Below, in pieces: positions 44,679 through 46,833 of a DNA stretch of 64,000 nt. The position numbers and the translations under genes were made by a program. Numbering within the stretch: the stretch's first letter is position 1; the number at the start of each line of letters is the position of its first letter. The notes beneath the pieces were generated by a model. That model did no database searches and had not been told where the DNA came from. It was given only the letters and a program-made list of their open reading frames with translations. This DNA is from Saccostrea echinata (taxonomy: Eukaryota). The DNA is taken from contig NW_026889785.1 of the NCBI RefSeq assembly GCF_033153115.1, positions 6,448,001-6,512,000 on the forward strand. The letters run 5' to 3'.

Positions 44679-44880
44679 AGGTATCTATTCGAATGATTAA
44701 AGTGGCCCTTAAAAGGGCCGTTGATACGTTTCTATATGAATGTTTTTTAGGTATCTTTTCGTATAGGTATCTATTCAAAATAAGTGGCCCTTAAAAGGGC
44801 CGTTGATACGTTTCTATAACCTTGAATGTATAAGAGGTATCTTTTCGAATCATTGGAGTGGCCCTTAAAAGGGCCGTTGG
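44679..44880 (-). terminator. Three tandem histone-mRNA-type 3' processing signals (stem-loop plus purine-rich downstream element)
   Basis: Minus strand reads CAAC-GGCCCT-TTTA-AGGGCC-ACT at 44875-44860, 44801-44786 and 44719-44704. Each is followed 9-13 nt later by GAA(A/T)AGATACCT. The first stem starts 26 nt after the stop of 44902-45870. Confidence 0.8.
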
Positions 44881-44901
44881 TTGATTTTTTTTATCAAGGG
44901 T

Positions 44902-45870
44902 TTACTCCCTGAGAGGCCTGCCTCTGCCTCTGCCAGCGAACTCTGTTCGGTCTGAGAGGGGAGGTCGTTGGTTACCGGTCAACGGCTCCATAAAGTCTGG
45001 TCTTCCGGGTCGGGGTGGAGATGGCTGTCTTGGAGGAGGGGGTCTCAATCCTCGCCCGCGAGCTGCATATCTCGAAAGCCTGCGTCTACACAGGGGGCAA
45101 CATTGGTTCATCTGTACCAGCACAGCTGAACACTCGAGACAAGCCGGTCGACGGCGACACTGACAGCAGATGTAATTGGACATCCGATCCTCCTCCAAGC
45201 AAACTGCACAGGAATCCATCCTGGCTGCTGCGACTTGAATCCCCCATCTAGGAATTGGCCCCGTAGTACTCACACCTGGTGACATCTCCGGGGTCGGGGG
45301 TGGTGGTGGTCTAGCCATCTCCGGGGAAGGTGGTGGTGGTCTAGCCAGTTCCGGGGAAGGTGCCCAGTCATCGTTGACGGGAGGGGACCAATCCGAATCA
45401 ACGGATGAAGAAGCCCCCTGTCCAGCCCAATCGTTGTTAACGGGAGGGGTCCAATCCGAATCTACGGAGGAATCCCACTGTCCAGCAGATGCTCCCGGGG
45501 GATGACTGGGTGACCAGGTAGGAGTTGGTGGTCTTCTTGGAGGGGACGGGCTTCTCGGGTGGTCCTCGAGTAGTTCCGGACTACTCAGAGGGGCCGAATA
45601 CGAAGCAGCAGGTGTTGAATCTGTCCTCCTCCTCCTTCTCCTTGGCTGGTCATCTTCACTGGTAGACGGCGATCTTCGTCTTCTTCTGTGTCTTTGTCGT
45701 CGCCGTCTACTTCTTCTTCCCATCCTGTTCAACAGGTCACTGGCTAGGCCCAGAGTAGCTATCGGCCAGCGAGCTAACTCCGTCCCGGTGTTGATGTCCC
45801 GCACAATCCAGACATTTACGACCTCAACGCCATCAACCAAAAAGTAGTTGGGAACGTCGTCCTCAGCCAT
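44902..45870 (-). CDS. Arg/Pro/Ser-rich protein with C4C4 RING-like finger (putative nuclear E3 ligase or regulator)
   Basis: 322-aa GC-rich ORF with poly-Arg NLS-like tracts, many SP/TP sites, and repeats SSVDSDW x2 and PE(L/M)ARPPPP. RING-like CAVC-x10-CCQC-x5-CLEC-x10-CPLC. CATAAATA (45940) and Inr TCATT (45909). Confidence 0.8.
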   Translation of the reverse strand: MAEDDVPNYFLVDGVEVVNVWIVRDINTGTELARWPIATLGLASDLLNRMGRRSRRRRQRHRRRRRSPSTSEDDQPRRRRRRTDSTPAASYSAPLSSPELLEDHPRSPSPPRRPPTPTWSPSHPPGASAGQWDSSVDSDWTPPVNNDWAGQGASSSVDSDWSPPVNDDWAPSPELARPPPPSPEMARPPPPPTPEMSPGVSTTGPIPRWGIQVAAARMDSCAVCLEEDRMSNYICCQCRRRPACLECSAVLVQMNQCCPLCRRRLSRYAARGRGLRPPPPRQPSPPRPGRPDFMEPLTGNQRPPLSDRTEFAGRGRGRPLRE

Positions 45871-46833
45871 ACTGATACGGTGTCAGCAGAACTGATACTA
45901 ACAGAATGACACCGAGCTCTGGCAAGCTGCCGTATTTATGCGCACATCACGAGCGTAAAAGAGAGCACCCTAAACCGAGAGCCAAAAAAATCATGGCGAC
46001 GTCAAATTGTGTTATTTTGTGCTTCATAATCTATACTTTGGAGTGAATAACTTATTATGGGATTAGAAATACTTTCAAACATCTTACCCATCAGATGAAG
46101 GTAAGTTTCAGGCATGATTTCATAGTATTTTTGATGCATGACATTTATCTGTCGTCTAGAAAAGAAGCATTGATGTTGAACCGAAGGGGTAAAATCGGGT
46201 CACCTGAATACATAAAATAAGTATTTTAACCTTTTTTAAAGTGTGATACAAGGAAAACTTAATCTATACAATGAGATTAAACCTAGAGAAAAGTGTTGAT
46301 ACTGTTTTTAAATCAAAGGAATGGTTTCAAGTGTAAAAATATAGCCAGAGTCGGTTTAGGTATAGACACAAGAAGGCGAAGGTCGGCCATTTTTTGTAGA
46401 AAATCACTGTAATGACTTGTATAGAGAATATAGGATTTTTTTAAATCGTGACCTTTTCTGACTGGAATTTTTAAATAAATCAAATCAGTTTAGTTGAAAA
46501 ACAATTTGAATCCACTTTATTTCCAGTGGGAAGGTCTAGATGTTTCATAAATAACGATATTGATAAAACACAGCGTCTTATTACAAGGCACAGCATTCTA
46601 TACACATAAGCATGACTTTTTTTAGGAATCCTGAAAGATTTCGAGATAAAACAGATTAGTTTTAAATTCAATCTATATCTACTTTAATGGAAATGGGAAT
46701 AGATTTTTTTTTTCTGACTAAACAAAAAAAAAATCTCAGCGTCTAAAAAATCTCAGCGTCTAAACCAGGGCACAAGATGGCGTCATATTTGTATAGAAAT
46801 CATAACAAAAGACTTATTGTGGTTGACATCCTT

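Follow-up and report, generated by a model that had tools for sequence, protein, structure and literature searches.

A histone-type 3' end cassette behind a RING-like gene of an oyster Polinton

The stretch of DNA analyzed here, called the window below, comprises 64,000 nucleotides of the genome of the oyster Saccostrea echinata (contig NW_026889785.1, positions 6,448,001 to 6,512,000 of the forward strand) and contains a Polinton, a virus-like mobile element, whose last minus-strand gene codes for a protein with a RING-like finger. On its coding strand this non-histone gene ends in the stem-loop and histone downstream element (HDE) of replication-dependent histone genes, as the first-pass annotation of the window had proposed and as both the Rfam model and comparison with the histone genes of the host now bear out. 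The cassette matches histone 3' ends, is conserved among Polinton copies and lineages, and is specific both for the strand and for the gene. In histone messengers such a cassette binds SLBP and recruits the U7 snRNP (small nuclear ribonucleoprotein) through the HDE, the RNA being cut five nucleotides (nt) past the stem and not polyadenylated (10.64898/2026.10.14.759114; PMC11417402), and replication-dependent histone mRNAs are described as the sole known non-polyadenylated cellular mRNAs (PMC4604434). Judged from the sequence and from this established pathway, the RING transcript would be processed at the cassette and timed by it, and we consider it fairly probable that histone-like processing, dependent on U7 and SLBP and without polyadenylation, couples the RING gene to dividing cells. 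It is a known RNA signal, conserved, in an apparently undescribed role.

The cassette and the host histone 3' ends

The three identical hairpins, the four copies of GAA(A/T)AGATACC (starting at 44846, 44776, 44760 and 44690) and the distance of 26 nt between stop codon and first stem were all found where the first-pass annotation had placed them. The parts of the cassette, in positions of the window, are as follows.

44897..44910, minus strand: motif AGGGAGTAAACCCT across the stop codon, kept with few changes in most of the divergent oyster copies, found neither in host histone genes nor in the metagenome lineage
44860..44875, minus strand: stem-loop 1, GGCCCTTTTAAGGGCC, starting 26 nt past the TAA, same as the hairpin of a host H2B gene (L139)
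44835..44846, minus strand: HDE-like element 1, GAAAAGATACCT, 13 nt past stem 1, the spacing of host histone genes
44809..44814, minus strand: GAAACG motif, at a similar distance in 7 of the 7 host histone 3' ends compared
44786..44801, minus strand: stem-loop 2, GGCCCTTTTAAGGGCC, tandem duplicate
44749..44776, minus strand: two HDE-like elements past stem 2, at 44776-44765 (9 nt from the stem, one A-to-T change) and 44760-44749, neither at the canonical 13 nt
44704..44719, minus strand: stem-loop 3, GGCCCTTTTAAGGGCC, tandem duplicate
44679..44690, minus strand: HDE-like element past stem 3, GAATAGATACCT, 13 nt from the stem
44556..44561, minus strand: nearest coding-strand AATAAA, 143 nt beyond stem 3, in agreement with the roughly 140 nt first reported

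With the replication-dependent histone mRNA 3' end (RF00032 plus HDE; SLBP, U7 snRNP, CPSF73) the Polinton cassette shares the 6-bp stem with a conserved G-C at pair 2, the UUUN loop of 4 nt, the A/C-rich 5' flank, the AC 3' flank, the purine-rich element at host spacing and the short distance from the stop codon, which at 26 nt lies within the range of about 25-60 nt given for histone mRNAs (10.64898/2026.10.14.759114). It differs in following a non-histone gene of a virus-like element and in being tandemly duplicated. When scored against Rfam Histone3 (RF00032), as had been suggested at the outset, copy 1 (44880-44835) reached 36.0 bits over a gathering score of 34 (E 8.4e-7), and nothing else in the 64-kb window matched Rfam; although copies 2 and 3 have the same hairpin, they stayed below the gathering score. 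The hairpin pattern with at most one mismatch occurs three times in the window against a mean of 0.56 in shuffled sequence, a count of three being reached in 2 of 100 shuffles, and the triple array folds as three hairpins (z = -5.3 against shuffles). The spacers between the hairpins do differ in sequence, as first noted, but they are not simply divergent: the three units are homologous tandem duplications of 74 and 82 nt, spacers included, and identity within the array is therefore not by itself evidence of selection.

In host H2A, H2B, H3 and H4 genes the stem-loop has GAAAAGAT(A/G)C 13 nt downstream, and the downstream element in the window reads GAAAAGAT(A/G)CC, 13 nt past stem 1. From stem to HDE (41 nt) the window agrees with seven host histone ends at 30-35 positions, and its 16-nt hairpin is present exactly in an H2B gene that belongs to the host's 8.2-kb histone cluster. 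Against the possibility, set down beforehand, that the histone elements of the host might prove unrelated, hairpin, HDE sequence and HDE spacing all match the window. Chance origin of the cassette is ruled out by the window shuffles together with the genome-wide control counts given below, an upstream histone pseudogene by the open reading frame (ORF), which is not a histone, and a bacterial-type terminator by the eukaryotic host and the match of the HDE to host histone genes.

An SLBP gene is present in the host genome, where histone genes run to hundreds of copies (at least 150 matches). Five candidates for a host U7 small nuclear RNA (snRNA) were folded, and a hairpin right after the Sm-like site was seen only in L063 (G000:C11:3770003-3770060, minus strand), an unverified candidate with 8 nt complementary to the HDE core that scores 23.6 bits against a cut-off of 34 (RF00066). 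Comparing promoters with those of U2 genes gave no useful information.

A GAAAC(G/A) motif 14-25 nt beyond the HDE is common to all seven host histone ends, the oyster Polinton copies and a tandemly repeated gene described below (L104). It may be a further histone 3' end or termination signal in oysters; we know of no described element that matches it.

Conservation in the oyster genome and in metagenome contigs

Genome-wide, the hairpin followed by AC was matched 288 times (reversed control, 4) and hairpin plus HDE 434 times (control, 0), the latter count including host histone genes. The 335 hairpin-plus-HDE sites of one genome search are not a count of Polintons; among the 100 of them listed, two lie in the host histone cluster (one examined, the H2B gene) and four are of the SGNH-gene type described below (two examined). 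The first 30 hairpin loci fall in 19 distinct places and, among the matches listed, all lie in the same region of the Polinton with the hairpin on the strand of the RING gene. A further 20 RING copies were chosen by protein similarity from 150 listed (319 candidates in the protein search), ten because they were absent from the hairpin list and ten on contigs beyond it. Stem and TTTN loop are perfect in 18 of these 20, with one change in each of the other two. The stem lies 25-33 nt from the stop codon in 14 of the 16 oyster copies measured, and all four other oyster copies scanned (L010, L013, L020 and L082) exceed the gathering score of Rfam Histone3.

When 27 ends were aligned (22 from oyster, 5 from metagenome contigs), pairing held in all 162 stem cells, a result that none of 500 shuffles reached. 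Pair 3 is C-G in 18 ends, U-A in 7 and U-G in 2, and pair 5 is C-G in 25 and U-G in 2; since the intermediates are U-G and never C-A, coding-strand RNA is favored over a DNA cruciform. The HDE stands 13-14 nt past the stem in 43 of the 54 hairpin-HDE pairs scored. A copy has between 1 and 5 hairpins, a single one in many divergent copies, so that the triple array to which the first-pass annotation had attached importance is incidental and a special role for exactly three hairpins is ruled out. Duplication units measure 74-86 nt in the clade of the window and 26, 46-49 or 54-57 nt in a separate clade (99/100 support), where a hairpin was added without an HDE; because the units differ across this split, extra hairpins arose at least twice. 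Some oyster copies have two hairpins ahead of a single HDE.

Two further motifs of the region are kept. The AGGGAGTAAACCCT motif is nearly invariant in divergent oyster copies and in some is duplicated along with the hairpin; it could form a small hairpin exposing the variant poly(A) signal AGTAAA, or could simply be Arg-Glu-stop codons. Ahead of a T-run, at about 44640-44628 on the minus strand, an AACACC...GGTCAC motif is kept in most oyster copies, and its AACACC part occurs in the metagenome lineage too.

Scanning of metagenome contigs for hairpin plus HDE gave 29 loci: 14 histone genes, 6 (5 distinct) located after a divergent RING exon, 4 other non-histone ORFs, 4 unclear and 1 too short. 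The RING exon is 29-36% identical to that of the window (E 7e-6 to 3e-3), and nothing in the oyster genome is closer than 42% to this lineage. In one locus (L119) the order is that of the window, namely a PP1-binding-like gene, RING, cassette and a convergent macro-like gene, and the macro-like neighbor lies opposite the cassette in L132 as well. When the whole Polinton was compared with the metagenome loci by blastn, the cassette was the only alignable DNA. Orientation and position of the hairpin, which were to be compared among relatives, are the same in divergent Polinton lineages and not random. A homolog on an ENA contig (P0005, 42% identical) reads through into a peptide that equals, by back-translation, the translation of hairpin and HDE. 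IMG/VR yielded 0 hairpin-plus-HDE matches and no RING relative among 60 candidate stretches, and when metagenomes were scanned with a protein pattern, 266 stretches included no relative; these blanks are weak, because the later DNA-pattern scan of metagenomes did find relatives.

The RING-like gene, its Polinton and other carriers of the cassette

The gene, its promoter region, its neighbors and its paralog in the Polinton are listed here.

44902..45870, minus strand: cassette-bearing ORF of 322 amino acids (aa), with an Arg/Ser- and Pro-rich region, an eight-cysteine RING-like finger (about residues 219-262) and an RG-rich tail
45933..45940, minus strand: TATA-like CATAAATA, about 63 nt upstream of the ATG, as read from the sequence
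43998..44492, plus strand: convergent neighbor, macro-domain-like (weak PDB sequence matches, E 0.003-0.1; synteny with metagenome loci L119 and L132)
46834..47331, minus strand: upstream neighbor with a PP1-binding-like region (Pfam PP1c_bdg, E 1.6e-5, narrowly below cut-off; homolog in L119), GADD34/ICP34.5-like
36875..37174, plus strand: second, paralogous RING-like gene of the Polinton, an internal control with no hairpin or HDE downstream of its stop codon

The finger of the 322-aa product matches Pfam zf-C3HC4_3 at E 0.003, below cut-off, its Atlas feature matches are RING families at 0.92, and its fold matches, all above E 0.001, are mostly zinc domains of RING or TFIIH p44 type. The eight cysteines are invariant across nine sequences. 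On these weak scores its identity as a RING finger is likely, and the product is a probable E3-ligase-type regulator, whose ligase activity we infer. As an RS/Pro-rich RING-like protein it is not a histone; the gene is not classed as a histone gene, and our claim covers its 3' end only. The TATA-like CATAAATA so close to the ATG suggests an intronless transcription unit. In protein searches, full-length relatives came from Saccostrea echinata only (the closest 80-95% identical), with 6 matches among representatives, 12 with a profile and none among longer proteins. A search of sequencing runs listed four from a single study, guessed to be RNA, that contain 0.30-0.51 of the words searched; none is recorded as RNA, and they speak neither for nor against expression.

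The Polinton itself measures 22.7 kb (26005-48678 of the window) and has AGTAGT termini, terminal inverted repeats (TIRs) of about 420 bp that are 95.5% identical and a 6-bp target-site duplication, TATGTA; long TIRs, AGT termini and a duplication of 6 bp are the structural marks of Polinton/Maverick elements. Their genes are likewise present according to Pfam: DNA_pol_B_2 in two pieces, an integrase (rve and Chromo) and a Pox_A32 ATPase. An IAP gene was found in the same way, and pPolB is split by an in-frame stop codon at 29119-29121. The ORFs at 39983-41404 and 41404-41907 are probably capsid and protease genes (in Polintons, a double jelly-roll major capsid protein and an adenain-type protease), labels that we take from position and motifs and that searches left unconfirmed: the former gave Capsid_N at E 0.09 only and no PDB sequence match, the latter no Pfam match. 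The cassette gene is the last on the minus strand and faces a long block of plus-strand genes, and other Polinton genes have AATAAA near the stop codon.

Some further observations on the element stand by themselves. A second ORF (46971-47390) overlaps the gene with the PP1-binding-like region. The paralogous plus-strand ORFs at 42495-42968 and 43212-43877, the first with a weak Viral_Rep match (E 2.5e-4), form a HUH-like gene pair that is unexpected in a Polinton. The element is inserted within a copy of a 168-bp tandem repeat family with several copies in the window (25655-26004, 48659-49977, 59570-60763 and 62617-63197).

The hairpin had been held to be essentially restricted to histone genes. 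This is true of human cells, where no expressed non-histone stem-loop target of SLBP is reported from HeLa in the accessible text of PMC4604434, but it fails in the oyster genome, which we searched for other stems ahead of the same HDE. The cassette terminates dispersed SGNH/GDSL-hydrolase ORFs of two kinds (L097 and L098; L140 and L141), with the hairpin duplicated in L098; no mobile element carrying them was identified, and the flanks L142 and L143 were uninformative. A gene for a 96-aa non-histone protein (L104) stands in an array where a unit of about 1571 bp is present in tandem at least 82 times (G000:C1:36.04-36.18 Mb, also on C296), with paralogs L099 and L108 (C14), and the one unit examined contains a 5S ribosomal RNA gene and the 96-aa gene ending in stem-loop, HDE and GAAAC motif. 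The 96-aa protein has no Pfam family, and the Atlas cluster closest to it is a low-scoring mollusc hypothetical protein; the array resembles a histone-5S cluster minus the histone. At L105 (G000:C12:16106328) an ORF region ends in a canonical stem-loop and HDE (34.5 bits). A repeated variant with a 5-bp stem precedes the same HDE in L106 and L107, with no clear gene. Among the metagenome contigs, a DDE_3 (Tc1/mariner-type) transposase ORF (L116:2-605) has stem-loop and HDE 16 nt past its stop codon (Histone3, 39.1 bits), and ORFs in L110, L111 and L127 have a near-identical cassette, L111 with two, on divergent ORFs next to a zinc-knuckle gene that resembles the terminal gene of the Polinton. 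With the cassette on several non-histone genes, the finding is broader than the first-pass annotation supposed.

Proposed processing at the cassette and its alternatives

In the reading that we prefer, the cassette would have been taken from host replication-dependent histone genes, or have converged on them, and would be held by selection. The pre-mRNA would fold the hairpin, host SLBP would bind it and host U7 snRNP would pair with the downstream element, leading to a cut about 5 nt past stem 1 (near 44855). The resulting non-polyadenylated mRNA would be exported, translated and degraded in the fashion of histone mRNA, so that the regulator would be produced as a brief burst in cells that are dividing (S phase, gametogenesis, cleavage embryos) and in which a Polinton could replicate and be inherited. 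Extra hairpin-HDE units would be backup cleavage sites that came from tandem duplication, and the distant AATAAA at 44561-44556 is a possible fallback poly(A) signal. That both the HDE sequence and its spacing of 13-14 nt are kept fits the needs of U7 cleavage rather than those of a pure decoy.

A number of findings weigh against this reading. Rfam RF00066 gave nine matches for U7 snRNA in the host genome, none over the cut-off, and pattern searches for U7 gave 9, 7, 1 and 20 hits against 6, 41, 3 and 18 in the reversed controls, which is control level or lower. The stem lies 110 nt from the stop codon in 2 of the 16 oyster copies, and the covariation amounts to one pair changed on both sides in related sequences, four pairs never varying. 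The 29 metagenome loci were selected by the cassette itself, and their count is not a frequency in that lineage; the identities between lineages, 0.90 for the stem and 0.94 for the HDE core against 0.57 for the spacer and 0.35-0.42 for the flanks, are inflated in stem and HDE by the search pattern. The metagenome RING resembles the cassette-less paralog of the window (38%, E 1.7e-7) slightly more than it does the cassette gene (34%, E 7e-6), with weak tree support for its placement, and its orthology with the cassette gene therefore rests on gene order. The metagenome lineage also has a RING exon that looks spliced, a stem 98-114 nt past the stop codon and, about 18 nt beyond the HDE core, an AATAAA, which makes at least part-time use of poly(A) likely there. 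Introns disfavor histone-type cleavage.

The same features can be read in other ways. A compact U7-dependent cut might serve cleavage and termination only, with the mRNA ending at the hairpin, run-on into the convergent macro-like and late genes blocked, less antisense or double-stranded RNA as the benefit and no selection for coupling to the cell cycle. The position of the cassette gene opposite the plus-strand block, with the same convergent neighbor in L119 and L132, is what such a role predicts, HDE and spacing are conserved to the same degree as the stem, and duplication of whole hairpin-HDE units suits fail-safe cleavage. Nevertheless we find this improbable, for an AATAAA of the kind that other Polinton genes have near the stop codon would serve equally, and the hairpin-only duplications (units of 26, 46-49 and 54-57 nt) add sites for SLBP and not for cleavage. 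Another reading is the SLBP sponge that the first-pass annotation had offered as one option, or more generally a longer or polyadenylated RNA whose several hairpins would bind SLBP, as a decoy for SLBP/U7 or as a means of recruiting SLBP; host histone supply would be lowered, or translation of the mRNA of the element boosted. Hairpin number rose independently at least two times across the 99/100-supported split, up to five copies, two hairpins precede one HDE in some copies, and AATAAA comes close after the HDE in the metagenome lineage; human cytomegalovirus (HCMV) blocks histone mRNA processing yet requires SLBP (PMC9169081). A decoy, however, has no need of an HDE at a fixed 13-14 nt (43 of 54 pairs), and cleavage at the canonical HDE after hairpin 1 would detach hairpins 2-3, for which reason a sponge fits less well than processing. 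Since, moreover, many divergent copies have a single hairpin and titration against hundreds of host histone genes (at least 150 matches) would need very high expression, we regard a decoy as unlikely.

It is also conceivable that a histone 3' end was captured once and carried along as a neutral relic, or that the hairpin acts as a palindrome in DNA. The copies in the window are recent duplicates, stems or HDEs have decayed in L025, L081, L091 and L093, and repeated capture of bivalve histone 3' ends is possible, other mobile-looking genes carrying them too. We hold this to be highly improbable, given that the cassette is the only DNA alignable between the Polinton lineages, that the stem changes are compensatory or U-G with no C-A, that in every case the cassette follows the stop codon on the coding strand, and that spacers and flanks change while stem and HDE stay.

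A gene may have both kinds of 3' end, H2A.X being a histone gene with both a stem-loop and a poly(A) signal. The dual-ended 'orphon' H1 of Mytilus (mentioned in PMC6210712) resembles the Polinton gene in having a stem-loop and, downstream, an AATAAA, which for the Polinton gene is near in the metagenome lineage and distant in the window; it differs in being a histone gene. HDE-like motifs bound by U7 snRNA in human LTR12/HERV1 (PMC11417402) are likewise U7-complementary, often several, and in a mobile element, but they lie near the 5' end, have no stem-loop in the available description and act in transcriptional repression through NF-Y and not in 3' end formation. HCMV is a nuclear DNA virus engaging the SLBP pathway, as this Polinton would be doing, yet in the accessible part of PMC9169081 no viral stem-loop RNA is described and the mechanism is left open. 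Polinton/Maverick elements (adintoviruses, PMC8502044) likewise have TIRs, 6-bp target-site duplication, pPolB, integrase and packaging ATPase; a term search of that paper showed no mention of a histone-type 3' end, RING or polyadenylation. Protein machinery for histone processing was sought in giant viruses and none found, as stated in the available text of 10.64898/2026.10.14.759114. Our literature search returned no paper describing a 3' end of histone type in a Polinton, a virus or a non-histone gene of a bivalve, subscription journals being thinly covered and supplements excluded.

Retention of the whole cassette by a virus-like element over deep divergence would breach the histone-only rule. 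We see about even chances for the wider proposition that in oysters and other lophotrochozoans the U7/SLBP pathway is not histone-only but supplies a group of non-histone genes with non-polyadenylated mRNAs, and that Polintons and other mobile elements (SGNH-hydrolase genes, a DDE_3 transposase) have repeatedly joined this group and so time their expression to dividing cells of germline and embryo. If that proposition is true, these would be the first natural non-histone and the first viral mRNAs with a histone stem-loop end. The RING gene is predicted to be under-reported in poly(A)-selected transcriptomes. For a nuclear DNA virus or transposon this would be a new route by which expression is linked to S phase or to the germline, and the cassette offers a direct handle on the timing of Polinton activity.

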